Below are positions 1,009-52,355 of a DNA stretch of 64,000 nt, one piece after another. The position numbers and the translations under genes were made by a program. Position 1 is the stretch's first letter; each line of letters opens with the position of its first letter. A model generated the notes under the pieces. The model was given only the letters and a program-made list of their open reading frames with translations, made no database searches and was not told where the DNA came from. Where the stretch lies: positions 39,210-103,209 of the forward strand of contig CAYLRY010000003.1 in the NCBI GenBank assembly GCA_964386535.1, read 5' to 3'. This stretch comes from an uncultured Dehalococcoidales bacterium. Lineage in GTDB: Bacteria; Chloroflexota; Dehalococcoidia; Dehalococcoidales; UBA3254.

Positions 1009-1103
1009 TGGCGGGAGTGCATAGGAGTCGAACCTACCAGAGACACTGAGTGCCCCCCAACGGATTTGAAGTCCGCGAAGTCCACCGGGACTTATCCACC
1101 CCC
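1009..1103 (-). tRNA. selC: tRNA-Sec (anticodon UCA)
   Basis: The 95-nt reverse complement folds with a 6-bp D stem and CGGU loop, anticodon loop CUUCAAA, long variable arm, T loop UUCGACU, G discriminator and encoded CCA. Confidence 0.95.
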
Positions 1104-1434: not shown

Positions 1435-1731
1435 CTAGATTTGATGTATCTCTCCGGTGGACTTGTTCTTCCAGTAAGGCCTGGATTGGAGAGGCCAGTT
1501 GAAAGAGATAGCTCCAGGACGGGGACAATCATTAACACAGCAGCCGCAATACCAGCATTCATCCGGATGCAGGATCATGGGGGGCTTACCCTTCTGGGGA
1601 TTGGGGATATAAACATCGACCTGGCAGACTTCAACACAATGATTGCAGCCATTGCAGATATCTGGATAAAAAGTGACCGGCTTGTTGGGCGTAGTCACAT
1701 TAGGCATAGCGATGACTTTATTCTGAGCCAT
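1435..1731 (-). CDS. 2x[4Fe-4S] ferredoxin, AprB-like partner of the adjacent flavoprotein
   Basis: CNGCNHCVEVC and CWYCGCCVNDCP motifs; lies directly downstream of the flavoprotein gene. Confidence 0.85.
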   Translation of the reverse strand: MAQNKVIAMPNVTTPNKPVTFYPDICNGCNHCVEVCQVDVYIPNPQKGKPPMILHPDECWYCGCCVNDCPRPGAISFNWPLQSRPYWKNKSTGEIHQI

Positions 1732-1764
1732 ATATTCCTCCGCTAATATATTTAGTTTAGTATT

Positions 1765-3717
1765 TTATTTACCTTTATATACCCCTGTATAGTCTTTGTT
1801 TCGGGACTCATAGTTCTTTTTCATATCGCCCCAGAAGTTAATGGGCAGTTCGCCGGGTTTAACTTTGCCGTTCTCCAGTTTGATGGTTATGAACTTATGC
1901 CATTCCGGCGGGTCCATAGCCGGGAAATCTATTCTCATAAATCCCAGCGGCATACTGGAAGCCTTACGGGCCAGAGAAGCATGAATAATGATCTGGGCAT
2001 AGGTAAGCATGCTGATGTCTTCCATGGTGCGCATCAACTTATGGGGATCCAGCGCATATAGCAGGGGAACTGATTCGGCTTCGATTTTCTGGAGCGTACC
2101 CAGCCCCATCTTGAGCAAATTCTCGGTCTTGTATTCAGAACAATAATACTGCATGGCGCGGGCAAAGCCAGCATGCAGCTCTTTCCATTCCATACCTTCA
2201 GAACGTTTAATAGGGGCATAGACCCTGGCTTTTTCCTTATCGATCTGTTCCCTGGAGATTTTACCTTCCTGGACCTCTTTGGCATAAGCCACAGCTTTCC
2301 GCCCGGCGTAACGGCCGGTAGCTGCGCAAAAGGAATGGTCCTCGGCATTGAACATTTGGCTTCCAGCAGCATAAAGGCCGTCAACAGTGGTCTTGAGGTC
2401 CCAGTCAATTATCAGGCCTCCCCGGTTTTCTCTCCACTGTGGCGGGCTGTTGCCTTCAATGAATTTATAGCTCTGTTGAAGGTCCCTGGCAGGATCAAAA
2501 CCGGCTTTGTTGAAGGTATCGATGATTATTTTAGTCGTGGCTTCTTCGCCGAGCATAAGGTTCCAGGTCGCCCTTCTCTCTACATCGGACATGGACGGCC
2601 AGTCACCATATATCGGCAGGGCGTATTTTCCGTTGAGGATGCCTTCAAGTACAGCTTTTTCGGCAGTCATGTCACCCATCGTACCGGCATCTACCCAGCC
2701 CTGGATGGGCAGGGGCAGCCGCTTGCCGTTGGCATCCACCAGAGGCACGTTTTCATAGGAAGCATCGCCGGCTCCGGTATACCACTTGTGTTTGAATCCA
2801 CCGGCAATACGGGTGACAGAGCTGGCTTCAGCACCGGTGATAGTAGCCCCGGCAAACCAGGCCATCACATTACCATCCGCCGAACCGGTACGGGAATACA
2901 TGGTGGATATACCGGCCAGCTCAGTGTTCATATTCCAGATTGAACCATTACCGGCAGTGGCCAGAATGGTGGCTTTAGCTTTAAAAATCATAAATTCGCC
3001 GGTGCGGTTGTTGAAGCCCACAGCGCCGACTACGCGAGCGCCCGGAACGCCGTTCTCATTCAGAAGGCGGGTAACCATGATACGGTCAAAAATATTTACT
3101 CCCAGCCTTTTGCATTCCTTTTTAAGGACCGGCTTGAAGGTGGTACCCCAGATCCGGAGCACTACATTATTGCGGTGGTTTTCAGGATCAGGATTACTTT
3201 TCAGGGGTTTGCGCTGGCTTTTCTCCGGCGGAGGAGCATAGCTGTGAACAATGCCGTAGCGGGGGGAGAGCATTAATTTGGTCTTGGGATCTCGTCCCTG
3301 GGCGCCCACATATTCATCCCCGGTATCGCGGATTTTTCCCCCCATCTGCTCCATTTCCAGGAGGGTATCCCAGTCCTCACGGTTCTGGATCTGAAGCCCG
3401 ATGCCGTTACAATAAGGACGATCAGCCATATGCTGAGCCCATTCATCAGGATCGACATTAGATAGCGGATTTGCCGGCACATTGCACCAGTGGTCACAGC
3501 CGGGACCGCCGGCGCCGGAACGGATTACATCGCCTTTCTCAGCCAGAACTACCTTCAGGCCGGAGCGGGCGGCGCTGATGGCTGCCCAGCAGCCGGCAAT
3601 GCCGCCGCCGATGACCAGGATATCACTGGAAATCTCCTGTTCCTGATCATAGCGGATGGGATAAGGCCAATCCGGAGCGTGTCCCTGTTCTTTCAGGTAA
3701 TCATGCCAGTTAGTCAA
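1765..3717 (-). CDS. FAD-dependent oxidoreductase, AprA/SdhA/FrdA flavoprotein superfamily
   Basis: DILVIGGGIAG FAD-binding motif, RSGAGG, ILATAG, TTVDGLYAAG, C-terminal ARKAS..FMRIDFP. Confidence 0.85.
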   Translation of the reverse strand: MTNWHDYLKEQGHAPDWPYPIRYDQEQEISSDILVIGGGIAGCWAAISAARSGLKVVLAEKGDVIRSGAGGPGCDHWCNVPANPLSNVDPDEWAQHMADRPYCNGIGLQIQNREDWDTLLEMEQMGGKIRDTGDEYVGAQGRDPKTKLMLSPRYGIVHSYAPPPEKSQRKPLKSNPDPENHRNNVVLRIWGTTFKPVLKKECKRLGVNIFDRIMVTRLLNENGVPGARVVGAVGFNNRTGEFMIFKAKATILATAGNGSIWNMNTELAGISTMYSRTGSADGNVMAWFAGATITGAEASSVTRIAGGFKHKWYTGAGDASYENVPLVDANGKRLPLPIQGWVDAGTMGDMTAEKAVLEGILNGKYALPIYGDWPSMSDVERRATWNLMLGEEATTKIIIDTFNKAGFDPARDLQQSYKFIEGNSPPQWRENRGGLIIDWDLKTTVDGLYAAGSQMFNAEDHSFCAATGRYAGRKAVAYAKEVQEGKISREQIDKEKARVYAPIKRSEGMEWKELHAGFARAMQYYCSEYKTENLLKMGLGTLQKIEAESVPLLYALDPHKLMRTMEDISMLTYAQIIIHASLARKASSMPLGFMRIDFPAMDPPEWHKFITIKLENGKVKPGELPINFWGDMKKNYESRNKDYTGVYKGK

Positions 3718-5132: not shown

Positions 5133-6419
5133 GTGCCGGAAGATAATCCAGGAACATTAATCCAGGGGAGAGAACCTTTTGTTATTATGGCCAAACCGGT
5201 AGGTCCGGTATGTAACTTGAAATGTAATTACTGCTATTACCTGGAAACCGCTCAACTATATACTCTACCACATCAGTTTAGAATGCCGGATGATTTACTG
5301 GAGACTTTCATCCGGCAATACATAACAGCCAGCCCGGGACCCGAAGTATTATTTGTCTGGCACGGCGGTGAACCAACCCTGGCCGGGATCGATTTTTACC
5401 GGCGTGCTGTAGAGCTGCAAAAACAATACCTCCCTGAGGGATGGAGTTGCTGGAACAACCTCCAGACAAATGGCCTTCTTTTAGACGAGGAGTGGTGCGC
5501 ATTTCTGGCAGATTCTCACTTTGATGTAGGGCTTAGCATAGATGGTACGCAAAGGCTGCATGATGCTTTTCGTAAAGATCTAACTGGTAACGGTACTTAT
5601 GAACAGGTAGTTGCAGTTGTCCACCGTTTACAGTCTCGAGGTATCCAGCCTGATCTACTTTGCGTAGTGACGGCCGTTGCGGCTGAGGAACCTGTTGGAA
5701 TTTACCGAGCATTGAGAGACCTGAATACCGGATGGATCCAGTTTATACCCTTAGTACGGCGTTTGCCCGGCGGACATATATCAGAGGAAACTATAACAGG
5801 TGAGGCATATGGAAATTTCCTGAGCAGAGTTTTCGATGACTGGCTCTACCACGACTTCGGGAAGATAAACATACAGTTCTTTGCGGAGATGATGCTGGTA
5901 TGGTCAGGGGGTACTGCCAGTGTCTGCTGGATGGCACCCACTTGCGGACGCGTGTTAATTGTTGAACATGATGGCAGCGTCTATTCCTGTGATCACTTTG
6001 TTAATCCTGAGCACCGCATCGGAGAACTGGGAACATCTTCTTTAAGCGAACTGGTTAATTCACCTGCACAGCAGCGTTTTGGCAATGATAAAAGAGACAA
6101 GCTTCCGGCGGTTTGTCGCTCCTGTCGCTGGCTTGAGGTGTGCCGTGGAGGATGTCCCAAAGACCGCTTCGCCCTGGCTGTGGATGGCCAACCCGGCCTT
6201 AACTACCTCTGCGGCGGTCTGAGACAATTCTACGCCCATGCGGAAAAGCCGTTGAGAAAAGTCGTAGAACGCATGAAACAAGGGCTCACTTCAGAGGCGA
6301 TAAGGGCAGAATTGCGCAAGGAATCCTTATCCCGCTGGAAAGGCATCGGACGAAACGATCCATGCCCCTGCGGAAGCGGTCGTAAAGCCAAAAATTGTTG
6401 CTGGTTTCAACGGCCGTGA
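5133..6419 (+). CDS. Anaerobic sulfatase maturase (radical SAM, SPASM domain, C-terminal SEC-C motif)
   Basis: AKPVGPVCNLKCNYCYY, WHGGEPTL, VYSCDHF, CRSC...CRGGCPK, GRNDPCPCGSGRKAKNCC. Confidence 0.9.
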   Translation: MPEDNPGTLIQGREPFVIMAKPVGPVCNLKCNYCYYLETAQLYTLPHQFRMPDDLLETFIRQYITASPGPEVLFVWHGGEPTLAGIDFYRRAVELQKQYLPEGWSCWNNLQTNGLLLDEEWCAFLADSHFDVGLSIDGTQRLHDAFRKDLTGNGTYEQVVAVVHRLQSRGIQPDLLCVVTAVAAEEPVGIYRALRDLNTGWIQFIPLVRRLPGGHISEETITGEAYGNFLSRVFDDWLYHDFGKINIQFFAEMMLVWSGGTASVCWMAPTCGRVLIVEHDGSVYSCDHFVNPEHRIGELGTSSLSELVNSPAQQRFGNDKRDKLPAVCRSCRWLEVCRGGCPKDRFALAVDGQPGLNYLCGGLRQFYAHAEKPLRKVVERMKQGLTSEAIRAELRKESLSRWKGIGRNDPCPCGSGRKAKNCCWFQRP

Positions 6420-10114: not shown

Positions 10115-11161
10115 GTGTTTTTGGTAGCTGGTACGGAAGTGCAGGAAAGAAAATTTACTTGTAGCGGCGCCTCTATCAGCGTCTCATCAATAAGCAAGCG
10201 GTTCGGCAAAGTGCAGGCCCTGGACAACATGAGCCTGTCCGTGCAGCCGGGGATGATTTTTGCCCTGCTGGGGCCGAATGGCTCTGGCAAGACCACTCTG
10301 GTGCGCATTCTCACTACTTTGCTCAGGCCGGACTCCGGGAGCGCTCATATCGGCGACCTTGATGTGGTCAAAGAAGCCTCAAAGGTACGTCCTTTGATCG
10401 GCCTGGCCGGCCAGTACCCGGCGGTGGATGAGAACCTGACGGGCAGGGAAAACCTGGAGATGATCGGGCAGCTTTACCATATGGGCAGCCTTAAAGCCCG
10501 GGCACGCAGCCTGGAGCTGTTGCAAATCTTCGCCCTGTCTGAAGCGGGCGGCCGCCGGGTCAAAACCTACAGCGGCGGCATGCGGCGCCGCCTGGACCTG
10601 GCAGCCACCCTGGTGGCCAGTCCGCCCATCCTCTTCCTGGATGAACCCACTACCGGTTTGGATCCCCGCAGCCGCCTAGGACTGTGGGAGGTAATCAGCC
10701 GGCAGGCGAAAAACTGCAATACCGTTTTTCTCACCACGCAGTACCTGGAGGAAGCTGACCGGCTGGCCGATAAAATCGCCATCATGGAGAACGGCCGGGT
10801 TATCAGGCAGGGTACGCCCCAGGAGTTAAAGGAATGCTGCGGCGGCAGCACCCAGGTAAAAATCAAGCTGGCGGATCGAGTCAGTACCCGGGAGGCCGTG
10901 GCCGCCCTGAGTGAAATCAGCCTGGAAAGCGTTCACGTAAACCCCGAGACCAGTGAAATAAGCCTCCCTGCTTCAGATGGTGCCTCCGTGCTGACAAAAG
11001 TGGTCCGCCGCCTGGATGCAGCAGGTATTATAATTGAAGAAATCGGCCTCAAGCAGCCCACTCTTGATGACGTTTTCCTGGCCATTACCGGTCATGCCGC
11101 CCAAAAGACCGGCGAAGAAAAAGAAAAAACCGATCAGCCGCCAGGCGGGGATATTATTTGA
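10115..11161 (+). CDS. ABC exporter ATP-binding subunit (DrrA-like)
   Basis: Walker A GPNGSGKT, signature YSGGMRRR, Walker B FLDEPT. Exact start uncertain. Confidence 0.9.
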   Translation: MFLVAGTEVQERKFTCSGASISVSSISKRFGKVQALDNMSLSVQPGMIFALLGPNGSGKTTLVRILTTLLRPDSGSAHIGDLDVVKEASKVRPLIGLAGQYPAVDENLTGRENLEMIGQLYHMGSLKARARSLELLQIFALSEAGGRRVKTYSGGMRRRLDLAATLVASPPILFLDEPTTGLDPRSRLGLWEVISRQAKNCNTVFLTTQYLEEADRLADKIAIMENGRVIRQGTPQELKECCGGSTQVKIKLADRVSTREAVAALSEISLESVHVNPETSEISLPASDGASVLTKVVRRLDAAGIIIEEIGLKQPTLDDVFLAITGHAAQKTGEEKEKTDQPPGGDII

Positions 11162-11931
11162 GCGCAAAAATCAGAGAAACCATATCAGATATCATCGTCA
11201 TGACGCGGCGGGATGTCCTCAGATATCTCAGGCTGCCGCAATTACTGGTCTTCAACGCCCTGCTTAATGTGGTGCTACTGCTGCTTTTCAACTACGTATT
11301 CGGCGGCGCCATTAATACCGGGGGTTTAAAATATATACAATATTTCCTCCCTGGTTTTCTGGCGCAAACGGTCGTCTTCGGCTCCACCCAAACCAGTGTG
11401 GGCATAGCGGAAGACCTATCGAAAGGACTGATTGACCGTTTCCGTTCTCTGCCCATGGCACGAGCTGCCTTTATTTCCGGCCGGGTGCTGGCGGACGCTC
11501 TGCGCTATTTAATCCTCGTGATACTCATTATTGTGGTGGGACTGGCCATGGGCTTTCGCTTTGATAACGGGGCCGTTCCCGCTGTGACGGCAGTAGCCCT
11601 GATTCTCTTGTTCGGCATAGCCCTGACCTGGGTAGGGGTATTTATCGGAACATCGGTTAAAGATACCGAGACAGCCCAGGTGGCCGGGTTTGTCTGGGTG
11701 TTTCCTCTGGTTTTCGCCAGCTCTTTATATGTTCCCATAGAGACCATGCCCGGCTGGCTCCAGGCCTTTGCCAAAGTGAATCCGGTCAGCCCCATGGTAG
11801 ATACAGTCCGCGCCCTATCGCTGGGTGGCAACGTGTTTGATCCACTCTGGAAAATCCTGGCCTGGGACGCGGCGATCATGGCGATATTTATCCCCCTGGC
11901 CCTGCGGCGCTATAAGCAACTGGGCCAGTGA
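11158..11931 (+). CDS. ABC-2 type permease (DrrB-like)
   Basis: About 6 TM segments, GLIDRFRSLPM, FASSLYVPIETMPGWLQAFAKVNP; overlaps the ATPase stop. Confidence 0.9.
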   Translation: MSAKIRETISDIIVMTRRDVLRYLRLPQLLVFNALLNVVLLLLFNYVFGGAINTGGLKYIQYFLPGFLAQTVVFGSTQTSVGIAEDLSKGLIDRFRSLPMARAAFISGRVLADALRYLILVILIIVVGLAMGFRFDNGAVPAVTAVALILLFGIALTWVGVFIGTSVKDTETAQVAGFVWVFPLVFASSLYVPIETMPGWLQAFAKVNPVSPMVDTVRALSLGGNVFDPLWKILAWDAAIMAIFIPLALRRYKQLGQ

Positions 11932-12006: not shown

Positions 12007-12475
12007 ATGAACATTATTAAAGAAACCCGCAGGCTTCGTTTTTACAATGTCTTTATGGGGATTTTGTACTTTATCCATATATGATATTATAGCCCTGATA
12101 GGACTGTTTAGCCTGACGACCTTAATGAACCTTTTTGGCCTGCTGATGGAGCAGCAAAAATGGGGTTCGGATAAACTGAATTGGATGGCCTTTTATATAG
12201 GATGTATAGTTGGTATAATTCCATGGATTTCTATTTCCATTTATTTTTTTGGTTCTGCCTCAACTGGTAAAATGCCTCTCTTCGTGTACTTTGTTTTGAT
12301 ATCTATCTTTATTCTCTTTTGTAGCTTTGCACTCAACATGTTTTTTCAATATAAAAGATGGGGACCCTGGCGGCACTATCTCTTCGGAGAAAAAGTCTAT
12401 ATTTCATTTCTTATAACTAAGAGTGCCCTGGCCTGGCAGGTGTTTTACGGCACTTTAAATCGTTCTATGTATTAG
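12007..12475 (+). pseudogene. Heliorhodopsin, internally deleted and frameshifted
   Basis: Frame 1 from ATG 12007 reads MNIIKETRRLRFYNVFMGILYFIH (HeR TM1-like). Frame 2 continues IYDIIALIGLF..MNLFGLLME..FYIGCIVGIIPW..FCSFALNMFFQYKRWGPW..YLFGEKVYI..TKSALAWQVFYGTL (HeR TM4-TM7 with the retinal Lys). The RWVEY region of TM3 is absent. Confidence 0.85.
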
Positions 12476-15035: not shown

Positions 15036-15473
15036 ATGATTGAAGGTGTATCAGGTTTTATCAAAAGACAGCTTGATTCACAACTTTTTGCTGTTCTGGC
15101 AACTCAGGCAGATGGATATCCTTATACCAATTTAATAGCCTTTGCCGCAGCGGACAATCTGAGGAGCATCATCTTTGTAACTAACAGAAATACACGAAAA
15201 TATACCAATACTATGGCCAAAAAACAGGTGGCGGTTCTGATTGACAACCGGACAAATCAGGCATCTGACCTTAATTCGGCAGTAGCTGTCACTGCTCTGG
15301 GTGCCGTTGAGGAAGCCGCCGGGAAGGATAAAGCCTGGCTTTCGGAAGTATTCCTTGCCAGGCACCCTGGACTCAAAACTTTTCTTCAAAATCCAGACAG
15401 CGCTCTTATGAGGATTGCCGTTTCTGATTATATTATCGCTACTTTCGAAGATACGCATCATTATTATGTTTAG
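15036..15473 (+). CDS. Pyridoxamine 5'-phosphate oxidase-like FMN-binding split-barrel protein
   Basis: FAVLATQADGYPYTNLIAF, TRKYTN, VAVLIDNR. Confidence 0.8.
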   Translation: MIEGVSGFIKRQLDSQLFAVLATQADGYPYTNLIAFAAADNLRSIIFVTNRNTRKYTNTMAKKQVAVLIDNRTNQASDLNSAVAVTALGAVEEAAGKDKAWLSEVFLARHPGLKTFLQNPDSALMRIAVSDYIIATFEDTHHYYV

Positions 15474-15537
15474 AAGTTAAATAGGTAAGGTGTACCCTCT
15501 TGATCTGTCCTTTTATTTTTTAAAGGAGTTGTGAAAC

Positions 15538-16023
15538 ATGATAAACAGGCAGCAGGCTAAAATGGCTCCGGATTTCACCGCGAAAGATAGTGCAGGGCGG
15601 ACAGTACGGCTTTCAGATTTCAGGGACAAAAAAATAATCATGCTGGTTTTTAATCGCGGTTTTATTTGACCTTACTGCCGTAAACACATGGCGCAGTTGC
15701 ACCAGGACTATCCAAAATTTGTTCAACGAAATACTGAGATCATTGCCGTAGGGCCTGAAGATTCAAAGTCTTTCGCCGGCTGGTGGCATGAGCACCAAAT
15801 GCCGTTCATTGGTATTGCGGATCCAAAGCATGAAATTGCGAATATATATGGTCAGCAGGTTAAACTCCTTAAATTTGGACGCCTGCCGGCCAGTTTCTTG
15901 ATCGATAGGAGCGGTTTGATACGATACTCGCATTTTGGTGAATCTGCCGCGGATATCCCTGAAAGCGAGGGAATTCTAAAGCTGATAGATGAATTGAACA
16001 GCGAATATAACCTCAAGGAATAA
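15538..16023 (+). CDS. Selenocysteine-containing peroxiredoxin-like (AhpC/TSA) protein, UxxC motif
   Basis: ATG 15538 follows AAGGAG. APDFTAKDSAGRTVRLSDFR..MLVFNRGFI-TGA(15667-15669)-PYCRKHMAQL is in frame with ORF 15688..16023 (EIIAVGPE..LPASFLIDRSG). tRNA-Sec is in the same window. Confidence 0.85.
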
Positions 16024-16517
16024 TATTCCTCAAATTGATATTTTTTTCCCTTATCGGTATTGAAATAGAATAGACCTCATCACTCGCCTGGTTAAAAAAC
16101 GCAGCCGGAGGAATTCTTCTCGGTGGGAAGTCTTTTCTAATTTAAGAATGAGTAAATACGAGGCTAGTTACGATCAAAACAAATGAGTCCCTAAGCCTGT
16201 TTGAAGAGATTGGAACGTGCTTTTAACATCCTTTATGCGAATTGGTTATAACTCATGTTGTCGGCATACAATTTGCAGTTATTATGGAGCATATGATACA
16301 ATCCGTTTTGCCTGGTACATGTATATTTTCCATGGTGAGAATTTTTCATTCTGGCTTGCCGCCGGCACCACAAAGTATCAAAACGGTCGCTTTTTAAGCT
16401 CGGCCATTTGTAGCGGCACGGTATTCCATTTTATACATGATCTCTGAATTACCCGCTTGGTATTTAAAAATCCATCTGATTCAAATAAATTGGGAAAGTA
16501 AGGGCAGGAGGATATTT

Positions 16518-17915
16518 ATGAGTAATACGGCAACGGAAACTCATCTCGATAAATTGATACATAACATACTGGATACAAAATACGAAGATATACCCTCCGG
16601 CAGCATCAGCCACGCCAAGAACCGCCTGCTCGATGCCGTCGGCTGCATGATCTGCGGGGCGAATGACATGGGGAACCCCGAACTTTTAGGTATAGTCCGG
16701 GACTGGGGCGGTAAGCCGGAAGCCAGGATCTTCGTCCACGGAGACAAAGTGCCTGCTCCGGCAGCAGCCATGGTCAACTGCATCATGGCTCGTTCTTTCG
16801 ATTTTGAACCGGTGAGCCCGGTAGCAGGAGACCAGCAGATACCGGGCCACCTCAGCGGCACTACCACCATAACAGCCCTCACCCTTGGAGATATGCAGGC
16901 TGTCAGCGGCAGGGAACTCCTAGCCGCTCTGCTGGTAGGCGATGATACCGCCACCCGCGTACTTCTCGCAGCGAAAGGCGGCACACGCCGCGGCTTTGAC
17001 CATGTGGGGCAGGCCAATTCCTTCGGGGCCACCGCCATAGCGGGAAGGCTGATGCGTTTGAGTCATGAACAGATGAAGCATGCCTTTGGCCTCATAGTAG
17101 ACCACCTTGGAGGCCTCCAGCGGATGATAACTGATACTGCCGCAGGATTCAAACTTTCGCAAGGGAATGCGGCTCGTGACGCCATTTTCTGCGTCCGGCT
17201 GGCTCAGGCTGGCTGGACCGGTATTGAGGATGCACTGCTGTCTGAAGGCGGATATTACACCATGTTCACTGATGGTATTAAAAATCCTGATCTCCTCACC
17301 AGAGACCTGGGTAAGGTTTATTACAGCGATGGGACTTTCAAACCCTATCCCTGCTGCCGTATGAACCACGCCGCAGTTGATTGTGCAGTGGATATCGTTA
17401 ATGAGCATCATGTATCCGGGGAAGATATAGAAAAAGTCATCCTGTACATGTCTCCCGGAGCCATGCGGGACGTTATCGGGCAGCCTTTCAGAATAAAAAA
17501 TTCTCCCCATGCCAGCGCCGGTTTCAGCGTCCAATACAATGTAGCCAATGTCCTGTTAAGAGGCAGCTCCAGGCCGGAACATTTTACAGAGGCGGCCATA
17601 CGGGATACAGCGATTAGTGACTTCATGAAGAAGGTTTTCATAGAAGGACTGAAGGAAGGTAACACGGAGAGCAGCGGGTTGAAGGTTATTATGAGAGATG
17701 GCAGGGAATTTAACAGGTTTACCCAAATTGCCAGAGGAGATCCCCGGAATCCTTTGTCCCATAAAGAACTGCTGGCCAAGTTCTGGATGAATATCAACTT
17801 CTCCCGGACAGTACCCCGGGAGAACGCTGAAAAAATTATTAAAATGGTGGAAGACCTGGAAAACCTGGACAGTGTGAAGAAGCTGGCGGATCTTCTTGTA
17901 GCCCGGGTTGTCTAA
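16518..17915 (+). CDS. MmgE/PrpD family protein
   Basis: RLLDAVGC, AAAMVN, FDFE..GHLS, FKPYPCCRMNH, ARGDPRNPLS; AGGAGG before ATG 16518. Confidence 0.9.
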   Translation: MSNTATETHLDKLIHNILDTKYEDIPSGSISHAKNRLLDAVGCMICGANDMGNPELLGIVRDWGGKPEARIFVHGDKVPAPAAAMVNCIMARSFDFEPVSPVAGDQQIPGHLSGTTTITALTLGDMQAVSGRELLAALLVGDDTATRVLLAAKGGTRRGFDHVGQANSFGATAIAGRLMRLSHEQMKHAFGLIVDHLGGLQRMITDTAAGFKLSQGNAARDAIFCVRLAQAGWTGIEDALLSEGGYYTMFTDGIKNPDLLTRDLGKVYYSDGTFKPYPCCRMNHAAVDCAVDIVNEHHVSGEDIEKVILYMSPGAMRDVIGQPFRIKNSPHASAGFSVQYNVANVLLRGSSRPEHFTEAAIRDTAISDFMKKVFIEGLKEGNTESSGLKVIMRDGREFNRFTQIARGDPRNPLSHKELLAKFWMNINFSRTVPRENAEKIIKMVEDLENLDSVKKLADLLVARVV

Positions 17916-46837: not shown

Positions 46838-47953
46838 ATGGAAAGATTTCGAAAAGTGCTGGAAAACCATCATCAATATGCCAGGAATTGGAAAGCCAGG
46901 ACCGGAGGTAAAGTTATTGGCTACCTTTGTCCCTACACAGCGGAGGAGGTGGCCTATGCAGCAGGAGTACTGCCGGTCCGCCTGCTGAGCGAAAATGAAC
47001 CTGATGAAATCACCGACCGCTACTTTTACGGCAACTGCAATTGCACCCGTGACATCCTCAACCAGATTCTAAAAGGCAGATACGACTACCTTGACGGAGC
47101 GGTACATTTCAACGGCTGCGAATGGCAGGAAAGGACTTTTGAAAGCTGGAAATATCATCAGCCTCTTCCATATATGCATTATGTGTATACCACTAATTAT
47201 GTTGAAGGCATCCGGGCAAAGAACTTGATGCGGTCGGAACTGGAAGCTTTCAAAAAGTCGCTGGAGGAATGGACCGGGAAAATTATCACTAACCAGGCGC
47301 TTGACAGAGCTATTGATATTTACAACACCAATCGACGGCTTATGCGGCAAATATATGAGTTGCGACGGTTGGATAATCCCCCGGTCTCCGGTGCAGAAGC
47401 CATGGAAATGGTGCTGGCCAGCCAGATAATGGATAAAGAAGAACACAACCAACTGCTTACCGGGGTACTCAGGGAACTTCCGGAGCGCAAGGGTATTAAA
47501 AATGTTGGTGTACGGCTGATGCTGCGGGGCAGCCCTACTCATAATACCAGGATGGAAAGACTGATAGAGTCGCTAGGTGCGACTATAGTGATCGATGAAC
47601 TGTGTACGGGCTCTGCCTACTTCTGGAATGAGGTTATCCCCCAGGAAGACCGCCTCATGGCTATAGCCCTGCGTTACCTGGATAAGCCCCCTTGTCCTGA
47701 AAAAGAAATCAGGTACGCCTCCCGTCCTGCCCATGTCCTCCAATTGATCGAGCGTTACAATGTGCAGGGAGTGGTAATTGACAAGCAGGTCTATTGCGAC
47801 CCTCATGGCAGCGATAACCACCGCATCTGGGCCACTCTCCGTGAACGGTATATTCCTTTCCATTATATCGAACGCGATACCACTCTGCCGGCTGGAGAAA
47901 TGGAAGCACGGATAGAGGCTTTCATAGACATGTTAAAACCCGAATTGGTGTAG
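46838..47953 (+). CDS. bzdN: Class I benzoyl-CoA reductase subunit (BzdN/BcrC-like)
   Basis: YARNWKARTGGKVIGYLC, EEVAYAAGVLPVR, DELCTG, YCDPH; 2-hydroxyacyl-CoA dehydratase fold. Confidence 0.75.
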   Translation: MERFRKVLENHHQYARNWKARTGGKVIGYLCPYTAEEVAYAAGVLPVRLLSENEPDEITDRYFYGNCNCTRDILNQILKGRYDYLDGAVHFNGCEWQERTFESWKYHQPLPYMHYVYTTNYVEGIRAKNLMRSELEAFKKSLEEWTGKIITNQALDRAIDIYNTNRRLMRQIYELRRLDNPPVSGAEAMEMVLASQIMDKEEHNQLLTGVLRELPERKGIKNVGVRLMLRGSPTHNTRMERLIESLGATIVIDELCTGSAYFWNEVIPQEDRLMAIALRYLDKPPCPEKEIRYASRPAHVLQLIERYNVQGVVIDKQVYCDPHGSDNHRIWATLRERYIPFHYIERDTTLPAGEMEARIEAFIDMLKPELV

Positions 47954-48003
47954 ATTTTTAAAAACAGAACTTGTTATGTTATTGTCCCAACAGGAGTAAT
48001 AAG

Positions 48004-49317
48004 ATGAGCGGTAATCAAAGAACTACCAAGTATGAAACCAGGCCCCTGGAATGCTGGGCTAAAGCCAAAGAGCTCAGGCGGAATTTTGAGAAAGACATAG
48101 GTGATACTGTAAACAAAAAAGAGGAGATTTTTGTATATGGCGGACACCTAGGCTTTGTACCCGGTTTTGACAACATGCGCACTGCCGTTCCATCCCCGCA
48201 GGGGATGATGTGCGAATGGGCTACGCCCAGATACGCTCTAGAGTGCCGGGCTAAAGCTGAAATGATGGGACACGGCCGTGAAATCTGCGGCTATCATCTG
48301 AACGTTTTCGGCGAGATTTATTTTAACCGCCATTATCTGGGAGGGCCGACCCCCAAGCCATTATTGATTTCGCCTGCGCCGGCAGTATGCGACCACCACC
48401 AGTATCCGTACAAGACTATTGCTAACTATTTCAAATGCGCCTACGTGCAGGCCTCTTGCCCGAGATATGTGGGTCCTATTGACCCTGCCAGAGAAAAAGC
48501 CATGCGCGAAACCGTTATCCAGGAAAGGCTGGATATCCTGGAACAGGTAAAACATGTTCTAGGAAGAAAATTCAATGAAGAGAACTATGTTGAAAGCGTC
48601 AAGCGCGGCTATCGCGTTCAGGCCTTAAGGGATCAGGCAGGCATGCAGCAGATGAACATTCCCGCGCCTTTAAGCTGTAAGGACATGTACTCCTTTATGA
48701 CGCTTGGCGGGATGCAGGCCACTGACCCGGAAGAAACTCTGGCTTTCTGGAGAATGCTTAACGATGAACTTGAGTGGAGGGTAAAAAATAAAATTGCGGC
48801 CGTGGGCAACGAAAGGTACCGCTGGGTGGAGGAGCATCCACCGCCATGGCGTTTCTTAAGATATTACCGCTATATGGAAAAATATGGCGCTGTGTGCGTC
48901 GGCACGGTTTACGCGGGTCTGCCCAAGCTGAAACAGCAACCTGATGGCACCTGGGTCCGCAAAAAGAATCCCCTGGAACTGGGGGTACCGATGAATACGG
49001 TGGAAGAATGCATCCGGGCTGATGTAGAGTCGCAGGAATTCGGAAATTTTGATGATAGACAAATGGGCCTGGGAGGCACGCTGGATATTGCCAAAGCCTA
49101 TAAAGCAGACGGGGCATTCCTATCGCTCTGGCGCAGTGCAGTAGGCTGTGCTCAGGCCAGGCGTGAAAACGGGCTGCTGTTGGAAAAAGAAGGAATAAAG
49201 GTACTGTACTATGAAGGCTCACAACCGGGCAATCAAATTGACCTGGATGAAATGCATATGCTTGACCAACTGGATGTCTTTATGGAGACCCAGGGATTAA
49301 GAAAGCTGGAAGATTAA
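48004..49317 (+). CDS. bzdO: Class I benzoyl-CoA reductase subunit (BzdO/BcrB-like)
   Basis: YET.PLECWAKAKELR, GREICGY, IPAPLS.KDMYS, NERYRW....PPPW, GSQPG. Confidence 0.75.
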   Translation: MSGNQRTTKYETRPLECWAKAKELRRNFEKDIGDTVNKKEEIFVYGGHLGFVPGFDNMRTAVPSPQGMMCEWATPRYALECRAKAEMMGHGREICGYHLNVFGEIYFNRHYLGGPTPKPLLISPAPAVCDHHQYPYKTIANYFKCAYVQASCPRYVGPIDPAREKAMRETVIQERLDILEQVKHVLGRKFNEENYVESVKRGYRVQALRDQAGMQQMNIPAPLSCKDMYSFMTLGGMQATDPEETLAFWRMLNDELEWRVKNKIAAVGNERYRWVEEHPPPWRFLRYYRYMEKYGAVCVGTVYAGLPKLKQQPDGTWVRKKNPLELGVPMNTVEECIRADVESQEFGNFDDRQMGLGGTLDIAKAYKADGAFLSLWRSAVGCAQARRENGLLLEKEGIKVLYYEGSQPGNQIDLDEMHMLDQLDVFMETQGLRKLED

Positions 49318-51038: not shown

Positions 51039-52355
51039 TTACCGGTCTTCCAGTAGCTCAAAAAAGCGTACTATATTTTCACGCATCTCATCGGCAGAGA
51101 CCACGGTGGGGTCGGTAATATCACACGGTAGGTCGAGCACGGGAATTCCAGCCTCCATTAAAGCATCCCGCACCAGGCGACTGGCTCCCCCAAATGAACC
51201 ACATCCAATATGGGCAAAATTAATTGCTCCATCCACCTTATATTCGTTGACATACAGCTTGAGATTATCCAGCATGGCTTGATCAATAGGTCCGCAAATG
51301 CCCATCAAAGGGTTCATAAAGCTCTTTTTTGCCAAACTGAACAACGCCTCTGAAGCCTCCAGAATGCCTGGTTGCCAGTCCAGAAAAAAGGGATTGACCA
51401 CCTCTATTGCTGCATATTCCTGGAATATATCCTTCAGAGTACCAATATAATACAGGGGTGGGAGGTTCAAGTTAATCAGGCGGAACCTCTCAAATGGCTC
51501 TTTTCCCGTAGCCCGGTGTATTTTAGTAACCAGTTCATTACGAAGATTTTTAAGATAAATGGTGGCGTCAGCCTGACCACCTAATAGAAGATTGATCATA
51601 AACACCCGGATAAAGGTAAACGAAGTGAAAGGTGAGGGGACATTTTTCCTTAGCTTGGATATTTCCCGGCACAGTTCAATTTGCTCGTTGGACCGGGTTA
51701 TTGCTTGCGACAAACGGTGATAGTCCATCTTGTGCCCGGACTGTTCTTCTAAAAAGGATATCAATTTCTTATATTCTTCTACCAGATATTCTTTTTCTCC
51801 GGGATCACCATTATAGGGATGGTCCAAGAAGAAAGCAGGACAATCATTTATCTTGGCTAAAAGAGCGCCGCTTTTAGCGCCATTCTCACAGGGTATATTG
51901 GTCCACAGCACAGCATCAGGCCGCGGGAGTAATCCTCTGGTAAAAGCTCCAGTCATCAGCCGGTGAACAGAACAAATTTCCGTGGCCAGCCCGGCTTCAC
52001 TGGCTGCTGTGAGTAATTGAGAAGTATCTCCTGTGAGCATGGCTAATAGCCATCCGGTAGCCTCAAGCTGGAAGGGCACGATATCCATTGCATAAAATAT
52101 TTCCACCGGACAGCCCAGAGAATAGGCAGCAACAAAACGATTTTTCTTACTGGCTCTCAACACTTTGGCATAATAGTCCACCGCCAGGCTCAGATAAAGT
52201 CTATCACTTCTTGGGACTTTAGGATTAAGTAAATTTATCTTCGCCGCCAGGCGGTAAGCTCGAAAAAGCGCTTCTACTTTACCTAAACCACTGGTTTCGG
52301 TTGCGGAGTTCTTAATTATCGCTTCAGATACTATTTTAGAAAGATCAATCTTCAA
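51039..52355 (-). CDS. 2-hydroxyacyl-CoA dehydratase/Bcr family subunit (orphan)
   Basis: PVEIFYAMD, EICS.H, PCENG, VDGAINF...GC, LDLPCD..DP. Confidence 0.8.
   Translation of the reverse strand: MKIDLSKIVSEAIIKNSATETSGLGKVEALFRAYRLAAKINLLNPKVPRSDRLYLSLAVDYYAKVLRASKKNRFVAAYSLGCPVEIFYAMDIVPFQLEATGWLLAMLTGDTSQLLTAASEAGLATEICSVHRLMTGAFTRGLLPRPDAVLWTNIPCENGAKSGALLAKINDCPAFFLDHPYNGDPGEKEYLVEEYKKLISFLEEQSGHKMDYHRLSQAITRSNEQIELCREISKLRKNVPSPFTSFTFIRVFMINLLLGGQADATIYLKNLRNELVTKIHRATGKEPFERFRLINLNLPPLYYIGTLKDIFQEYAAIEVVNPFFLDWQPGILEASEALFSLAKKSFMNPLMGICGPIDQAMLDNLKLYVNEYKVDGAINFAHIGCGSFGGASRLVRDALMEAGIPVLDLPCDITDPTVVSADEMRENIVRFFELLEDR

Follow-up and report, generated by a model that had tools for sequence, protein, structure and literature searches.

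Gene structure and conservation of an in-frame UGA

The stretch of contig CAYLRY010000003.1 of an uncultured Dehalococcoidales bacterium analysed here (64,000 nucleotides, hereafter the window) carries on its forward strand, at 15538..16023, a gene whose codon 44 is a TGA (15667..15669), and the present work concerns this gene and the selenoprotein family to which its product is assigned. A Shine-Dalgarno motif, AAGGAG, can be read at 15523..15528, 9 nt 5' of the ATG at 15538, and the frame that starts there runs through 43 sense codons to the TGA, which is followed by CCT TAC TGC CGT AAA CAC. After the TGA the frame stays open through another ATG at 15688..15690 to the stop codon at 16021-16023, i.e., over 161 codons plus the stop. 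Translated with selenocysteine (Sec) at residue 44, the TGA takes the first position of a U-P-Y-C redox motif that ends in Cys47 (TGC, 15676..15678), the presumed resolving cysteine. With Cys substituted for the TGA, the translation matches Pfam AhpC-TSA (PF00578) over residues 8-130 (1.4e-27, 96.5 bits versus a cutoff of 26), a domain that spans the UGA. Standard gene callers split the locus into a 43-codon and a 111-codon open reading frame (ORF), the second of which, 15688-16023 in the ORF list, begins at the codon of Met51. Upstream of this false start no Shine-Dalgarno-like motif was seen in the sequence, and the U and G of its codon form the first two pairs of the RNA stem described below. 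A first-pass annotation of the window had placed the true start at the ATG 15538 and the TGA at the first catalytic position of a CxxC motif, and both placements hold, the latter through alignment of the TGA column with the first Cys of the ResA CxxC.

Positions 15555-15800 of the window are identical in contigs assembled independently from two other samples, one of them from a different study. These contigs reproduce the TGA as well as the unusual codon CAC of residue 55, and since they show no difference at all, neither codon is an assembly error. The sequence comes from wastewater or anaerobic-digester metagenomes, and its relatives, together with partial synteny to locus L096, suggest a Chloroflexota-like affiliation. 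The window also contains, at 1009..1103 on the reverse strand, selC, the gene for tRNA-Sec with the anticodon UCA, which had been recognised before and was recovered by ARAGORN and by Rfam RF01852 alike (73.5 bits versus a gathering score of 47). When the whole window was scanned for further in-frame TGAs, no candidate had a redox-like context or a supporting ORF structure.

For comparison at the DNA level, loci of relatives were gathered from 10 species-representative genomes and 80 metagenome contigs, with a few more added, and loci L001-L090 and L095-L098 were read. The TGA stands at the identical column in 94 of the 94 loci fetched by similarity (10/10 from genomes, 80/80 from metagenomes and 4 further), at 47-69% amino-acid identity to the window protein. 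Because the metagenome sample started from Sec-form seeds, the Sec:Cys ratio is biased upward. The scan of the genome collection, with a Cys-coded peptide pattern among the patterns used, gave only 10 loci, all from metagenome-assembled genomes (MAGs) of Chloroflexota, and the taxonomic range is therefore under-sampled. The 43 residues ahead of the UGA are conserved in all relatives and make up the conserved N-terminal strands of the fold, and synonymous sites vary freely on both sides of the UGA, except in the hairpin codons and partly at Cys47. Genuine TGT or TGC codons occupy the UGA column in five distinct loci, more distant CxxC relatives are common among the representatives at 50% identity, and Cys47 is kept in 82 of 83 Sec-form sequences. 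Homologues with Cys aligned to the UGA had been named as the evidence to look for, and the aligned column indeed holds either TGT/TGC or TGA. Judged from these alignments, the conserved UGA with its Cys homologues represents the classical Sec/Cys signature.

A few sequences depart from the motif. The second Cys is absent from locus L050 (933-998) and from protein P0137, both of which read U-P-Y-A, and from protein P0010, which reads C-P-H-T; in L050 the hairpin is compensated (GGCUC/GAGCC). Locus L021 (1106-1171) has a TAA at the Tyr codon (U-P-stop-C), which probably marks a pseudogene or an error in sequencing.

The split of the gene is reproduced throughout the public databases. In a protein search the read-through sequence found 207 relatives, and among the best 120 of these about 100 clusters (90% identity) have approximately 111 aa and begin at the equivalent of Met51. 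Truncation by standard annotation, which the first-pass annotation had foreseen, is thus borne out, NCBI records included. Only 17 of the same 120 are full-length, nine with Cys and eight with Trp at the TGA column. The one Trp form checked at the DNA level (P0003, locus L095) has a TGA there; its Trp evidently stems from a gene call made with a code that reads TGA as Trp. Trp or Gly at the Sec column, mostly on short contigs, is found in P0003, P0005, P0006, P0009, P0014-P0016, P0019, P0122, P0126, P0149 and P0151; here a switch of the gene callers to genetic code 4 or 25 has apparently filled protein databases with spurious Trp/Gly variants.

A compact hairpin conserved at the RNA level

Shortly 3' of the UGA, at 15689..15704, the sequence can form the hairpin UGGCGC-AGUU-GCACCA, whose loop (15695-15698) begins 25 nt after the UGA and which pairing, covariation and synonymous entropy identify as the apical hairpin of a selenocysteine insertion sequence (SECIS). 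The first-pass annotation had pointed to this hairpin, its G-containing loop and its spacing. The element is present and coincides with the SECIS site of the family, but a C·A mismatch between 15692 and 15701 had gone unmentioned, and the hairpin is weak when taken alone. The mismatch comes from the codon CAC of His55, where the family has the Arg codon CGC. The significance of the SECIS comes from the family and not from this copy.

Seventy-nine distinct sequences were aligned without gaps from the UGA to +66, and columns 23-28 were tested against columns 33-38 (UGGCGC-AGUU-GCGCCA). The stretch AUGGCGCAGUUGCGCCA is almost invariant in this alignment. Standard pairs make up 95.1% of the cells in the hairpin, whereas shifting the 3' arm by 1-3 columns leaves 17-66%, and none of the shuffles attains the observed pairing values. 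Compensatory changes occur in three of the six pairs (GAUGC/GCAUC in L009, GGCUC/GAGCC in L050, UGUCGC/GCGGCA in L006). Normalised synonymous entropy was calculated codon by codon over 83 sequences and 59 conserved codons. The four hairpin codons (+8 to +11) have entropies of 0.34, 0.00, 0.14 and 0.34, which are the four lowest in the gene (mean 0.20), while the 55 other conserved codons have a mean of 0.89 and a minimum of 0.42. Within the hairpin CAG is the sole Gln codon, Leu is written as UUG or UUA but never as CUN, and Arg as CGC or CGU. Because it is the hairpin codons that are synonymously most constrained, selection acts here on the RNA and not on the protein. Three of the five Cys forms no longer have the hairpin, and the codons concerned have drifted (ACG...UUA; GAG CUG; GAG CAU UUA).

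The model of the bacterial SECIS (bSECIS) requires a loop of 3-9 nt, a stem of 4-16 bp, a minimum free energy (MFE) of at most -7.5, a G at loop position 1 or 2 with G or U after it, and a spacing of 16-37 nt between the UGA and the loop (PMC13188914). The consensus hairpin of the family agrees with this model in every respect (AGUU loop, 6 bp, 25 nt spacing, -10.0 kcal/mol), whereas the window copy agrees in its loop, its G and its spacing and has a stem interrupted by the C·A mismatch. Compared with the bSECISearch consensus of the E. coli fdhF type, the family element is alike in being a hairpin within the coding sequence, with G and then U at loop positions 2-3 and a G+C-rich stem of 6 bp, and unlike in being very short, without a recognisable lower stem; in addition, the hairpin of the window copy by itself misses the -7.5 threshold. 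An extended lower stem was considered and rejected, as constrained folds gave only inconsistent weak pairings. The hairpin was not recovered by RNAalifold on the 79 sequences, which preferred a weak alternative of -1.0 kcal/mol without covariation, nor by folding of the window segment alone, and Rfam returned no SECIS match at this site. The MFE of segment 15660-15730 is no better than that of shuffles (z = 0.52).

In run X1, a separate Logan contig of 36 nt covers window positions 15676-15708 and matches the SECIS stretch apart from 3 differences; its depth is 2.7 times that of the main contig. Such a contig is expected if co-occurring organisms share a near-invariant SECIS sequence.

Fold, catalytic motif and family

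An AF2 model of the Cys homologue P0002, which is 65% identical to the window protein, has a predicted local distance difference test (pLDDT) score of 89.1. Foldseek with this model gave 3hjp, 5ovq and 3drn as top PDB entries, with template modelling (TM) scores of 0.84-0.86 (Bcp4, Bcp1, AhpC2, Prx1 type), and the homologue thus has the thioredoxin fold of the peroxiredoxin (Prx) type. By sequence, the best PDB match of the window protein is ResA (4nmu, 4.7e-12). Sec44 falls on the first Cys of CxxC in ResA and on the Thr of TxxC in peroxiredoxins. Cys47, in the alignments to 4nmu and 5enu, falls on the second Cys of the former motif and on the peroxidatic Cys of the latter. Asn40 replaces the peroxiredoxin Pro (5enu, 5c04), and Pro117, in LPASFLID, corresponds to the cis-Pro of ResA (LPTSFLID, 4nmu), where peroxiredoxins have their catalytic Arg. 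In place of the canonical peroxiredoxin signature PxxxTxxC...R the protein therefore has N40, U44 and P117, with only Cys47 aligned. In the model a helix begins at residue 45, so Sec44 would sit at the helix N-cap, in the position of the attacking residue of CxxC proteins. The N-terminus, MINRQQAKMAPDFTAKD, is hydrophilic and there is no N-terminal hydrophobic segment, and the protein is accordingly cytoplasmic, unlike ResA/TlpA. The label peroxiredoxin-like, under which the protein was first described, is hence apt for the fold but not for the catalytic signature, which by alignment is that of a CxxC-type thiol:disulfide oxidoreductase.

A family of Prx-like thiol:disulfide oxidoreductases with PF00578 and UxxC or UxxU was predicted in 2004 by Kryukov & Gladyshev and found in Geobacter, Syntrophus and Desulfotalea, and under the name Prx-like 1 (pfam00578, UxxC) it ranks with the most abundant selenoproteins of marine environments (PMC13188914, PMC1794560, PMC2398784). 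Its reference member is the Geobacter protein WP_010940744.1. The window protein matches this known class by PF00578 and UxxC, the two features stated for it. It resembles the class in having Sec as the first residue of UxxC, in its Cys homologues, in its occurrence in anaerobes and in resting, like the class, on computational prediction only. It differs in the signature of its clade, U-P-[YHF]-C-R-x-H-M-A-Q-L-R, in the almost exclusive use of Sec within our Sec-seeded sample, and in that all hits of the clade in species genomes are Chloroflexota MAGs and not the Deltaproteobacteria described in 2004-2006.

No curated model in the NCBIfam scan captures the window protein at its trusted cutoff. 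The best is NF040769, SelL-related redox protein (75.7 bits, E = 3e-21, residues 9-105), whose cutoff is 120. The protein shares with SelL the Prx-like fold and a selenium redox motif at the same place, but SelL proper has UxxU (PMC2398784) and the score lies below the NCBI cutoff, so it is not a member. The PrxU model NF040737 gives 23.9 bits against a cutoff of 270; in PrxU, Sec replaces the peroxidatic Cys (TxxU), while in the window protein it replaces the Thr and the motif is UxxC. ResA (NF002854) scores 54.7 versus 170 and DsbE (TIGR00385) 24 versus 123. The protein has the CxxC and cis-Pro loop of the ResA/TlpA/CcmG group (U/C-P-Y-C versus C-K-P-C, LPASFLID versus LPTSFLID) and neither its membrane anchor or signal peptide nor a score above its model cutoffs. 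Members of that group (with CcmG also known as DsbE) are membrane-anchored or extracytoplasmic Cys proteins, whereas the window protein is overall closer to peroxiredoxins of the Bcp type. With the peroxiredoxins (BCP/PrxQ, AhpE, AhpC) it shares the fold, with a TM of ~0.85 to Bcp1, Bcp4 and AhpC2, and the alignment of Cys47 to the peroxidatic Cys.

Seven of the representatives at 50% identity (P0132, P0141, P0165, P0188, P0205, P0228 and P0253) are 843-1717 aa long with 3-6 domain matches each, and they could be tandem-repeat fusions or artefacts of gene calling.

Genomic partners, competing readings and significance

Gene neighbourhoods were surveyed at 92 loci. At 14 of them (L033, L051, L052, L054, L056-L060, L064, L065, L068-L070) the next gene upstream, in the same orientation and separated by 22-117 nt, encodes a class-I pyridine-nucleotide disulfide oxidoreductase (Pyr_redox_2 + Pyr_redox_dim), a candidate for the dedicated reductase of the selenoprotein. 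An AhpE-like peroxiredoxin (AWTAVC) overlaps the start of the selenoprotein by 1 nt or ends 9 nt upstream of it at five loci (L041, L043, L045, L055, L075), and in P0127, a 309-aa representative, the domain of the selenoprotein family (CPYC) is fused to a BCP-type peroxiredoxin domain. Heliorhodopsin lies directly upstream on the same strand at 18 loci, with gaps of 19-58 nt (among them L013, L014, L017, L024, L026-L029, L032, L035, L038-L040, L042, L048, L050 and L096), usually with DegV downstream (12 loci), and in L096 KatG and Fur are encoded a few kb from the gene. Neighbourhoods of heliorhodopsin have already been linked to genes for thioredoxin, peroxidase, catalase and peroxiredoxin (PMC8612252).

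The window itself contains part of a heliorhodopsin. At 12047-12475 on the forward strand only the C-terminal half is encoded (PF18761 positions 113-242 of 242; by tblastn, residues 139-265 of a 267-aa relative), and the N-terminal half is nowhere in the window. This half follows an ABC_tran/ABC2 pair at 10115-11931, as in L096, where an intact heliorhodopsin stands directly upstream of the selenoprotein gene, and it is probably a remnant of an L096-type arrangement.

Taken together, the observations lead us to conclude that 15538-16023 very probably encodes one cytoplasmic Prx-like selenoprotein in which the UGA is read as Sec44, and which is likely to work as a redox relay in peroxide defence. 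The selenoenzyme of 161 aa that the first-pass annotation had proposed is supported by the Sec/Cys pairing, the conservation of the UGA, the SECIS of the family and the presence of selC. In the mechanism that we propose, the UGA at 15667 would be translated as Sec with the help of the tRNA-Sec of 1009-1103, in response to a small SECIS hairpin within the coding sequence that would be built by the M-A-Q-L-R/H codons at the start of helix alpha-1 and is predicted to be bound by SelB. Sec44, at the helix N-cap in the place of the attacking Cys of CxxC, would attack an oxidised substrate; Cys47, one turn later, would resolve the adduct to a selenenylsulfide, and a partner reductase would reduce this again. 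Electrons may accordingly pass from an NAD(P)H-dependent pyridine-nucleotide disulfide oxidoreductase to the selenoprotein and on to peroxiredoxins or other oxidised targets. A selenol/thiol relay in the defence against peroxide and oxidative stress is favoured because of the gene neighbourhoods of the relatives.

The protein could instead be a peroxidase itself, with Sec44 peroxidatic toward H2O2 or organic hydroperoxides, Cys47 resolving the selenenic acid, and thioredoxin or a disulfide reductase recycling the enzyme, as in peroxiredoxin or glutathione peroxidase. Selenols react fast with peroxides, every one of the best structural matches is a peroxiredoxin, the protein falls into Pfam AhpC-TSA, the oxidative-stress neighbourhood (KatG, Fur, heliorhodopsin, peroxiredoxin) fits such an activity, and the few relatives without a second Cys (U-P-Y-A in L050 and P0137) recall the 1-Cys peroxidases. 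We nevertheless regard this classical role as less likely, though still plausible enough to be kept in mind, for all three signature residues of the peroxiredoxins are replaced (Pro by Asn40, Thr by Sec44 and Arg by Pro117), Sec is not at the peroxidatic position that it has in PrxU (with the low score against NF040737 given above), and next to a complete peroxiredoxin, coupled or fused to the protein, a second peroxidase is less economical than a reductant. Very improbable, by comparison, is a reading of the TGA as anything but a Sec codon, i.e., as a true stop between two unrelated small ORFs, as a sequencing or assembly artefact, or as Trp or Gly under an alternative code. It can appeal to the two ORFs of 43 and 111 aa that gene callers produce, and to the W or G at this column in some public predictions. 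It has to contend with a TGA present in 94/94 loci of 47-69% identity whose protein is conserved on both sides of it, with homologues that have Cys and not Trp or Gly, with the one W form checked, which is TGA in the DNA, with the agreement of independent assemblies and with the presence of a tRNA-Sec gene. Moreover, TGA is the ordinary stop of 6 of the 25 well-supported (family-supported) genes in the window, which therefore uses the standard genetic code, and an alternative code was rejected on this stop-codon usage and on the Cys homologues.

Several observations nonetheless count against the reading as a functional selenoprotein with a role in a relay, foremost those on the window copy of the SECIS. 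Its hairpin alone has -4.6 kcal/mol, against a family median of -9.2, and ranks 72nd of 78; folded together with 45-66 nt of context it comes last among 79 (-8.0 kcal/mol with 66 nt), and in the free fold a competing hairpin is marginally more stable. Given the mismatch, this weakest fold in context and the competing hairpin, the efficiency of Sec decoding in the window copy is uncertain. A check of the 30 largest ORFs in the window found no selA, selB or selD, and in two metatranscriptome runs no contigs cover the selenoprotein gene. None of the neighbourhood partners seen in relatives adjoins the gene in the window, where it stands between a PNPOx-like gene (15036-15473) and a PrpD/MmgE-like gene (16437-17915); as the window gene has these other neighbours, the assignment of partners rests on the relatives. 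Each of the syntenies is also confined to a clade and may reflect relatedness and not function. The weak hairpin and the heliorhodopsin halved to its C-terminal part 3 kb upstream, which hints at local gene decay, could both be explained if the family consisted of genuine selenoproteins and the window copy were decaying, with the change of Arg55 to His crippling the SECIS, the UGA mostly terminating translation after a peptide of 43 residues, and the gene being in effect a pseudogene. We consider this improbable, as both halves of the ORF are intact, all conserved residues of the family are present, the Shine-Dalgarno motif is kept, and so are the AGUU loop and its two closing pairs. Samples of at least two studies also contain this sequence without change. 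The stem is just as weak in nine other members of the family (GGCAC, -4.6) and weaker in one (-1.9); the window copy of the SECIS is thus within the range of the family, but at its edge.

Other features of the window are set apart from the selenoprotein gene. Adjoining selC, at 1435-3717 on the reverse strand, is a flavoprotein of 650 aa that resembles AprA or fumarate reductase and lies below every equivalog cutoff, and beside the two is a small ORF that resembles a 2x[4Fe-4S] ferredoxin in sequence. Positions 5133-6419 encode an anaerobic sulfatase maturase. The ORFs at 46838-49317 (+) and 51039-52355 (-) resemble either the N and O subunits of bzd-type benzoyl-CoA reductase or 2-hydroxyacyl-CoA dehydratase/double-cubane reductases; all are below equivalog cutoffs and are consistent with an anaerobic lifestyle. 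Between 59500 and 61250, about 1.7 kb contain no ORF of at least 130 aa on either strand but only short overlapping ORFs, and neither a tandem repeat nor an Rfam match was found in this region.

Although the general picture of bacterial selenoproteins is unchanged by these results, what is new here is a clade that is almost entirely Sec-using in a Sec-seeded sample, with a compact near-invariant SECIS, misannotation on a large scale and recurrent genomic partners. The catalytic half of the protein, including its selenium, is absent from essentially every public record of the family, and because of this misannotation selenoproteome and metabolic surveys of anaerobic digesters, peat and sediments undercount selenium use. 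The family is also a very clean example of dual coding, since the codons for A-Q-L-R are frozen as a SECIS and relaxed in three of the five Cys forms. We would go further only tentatively, toward an idea that we think rather doubtful as a whole: a distinct, almost-always-Sec subfamily (U-P-x-C-R-x-H-M-A-Q-L-R, with the near-invariant mini-SECIS in its first helix) might act as a selenol relay that is fed by its own reductase and serves AhpE/BCP peroxiredoxins, might be co-transcribed with heliorhodopsin in many lineages, and might belong to a defence of anaerobic monoderms, e.g., Chloroflexota, that is triggered by light or oxidants. As recurring partners, the disulfide oxidoreductase, the peroxiredoxins and heliorhodopsin suggest an electron-transfer chain. 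The synteny may be clade-specific, yet the selenoprotein offers a concrete candidate for the redox output of the still-unexplained heliorhodopsins.

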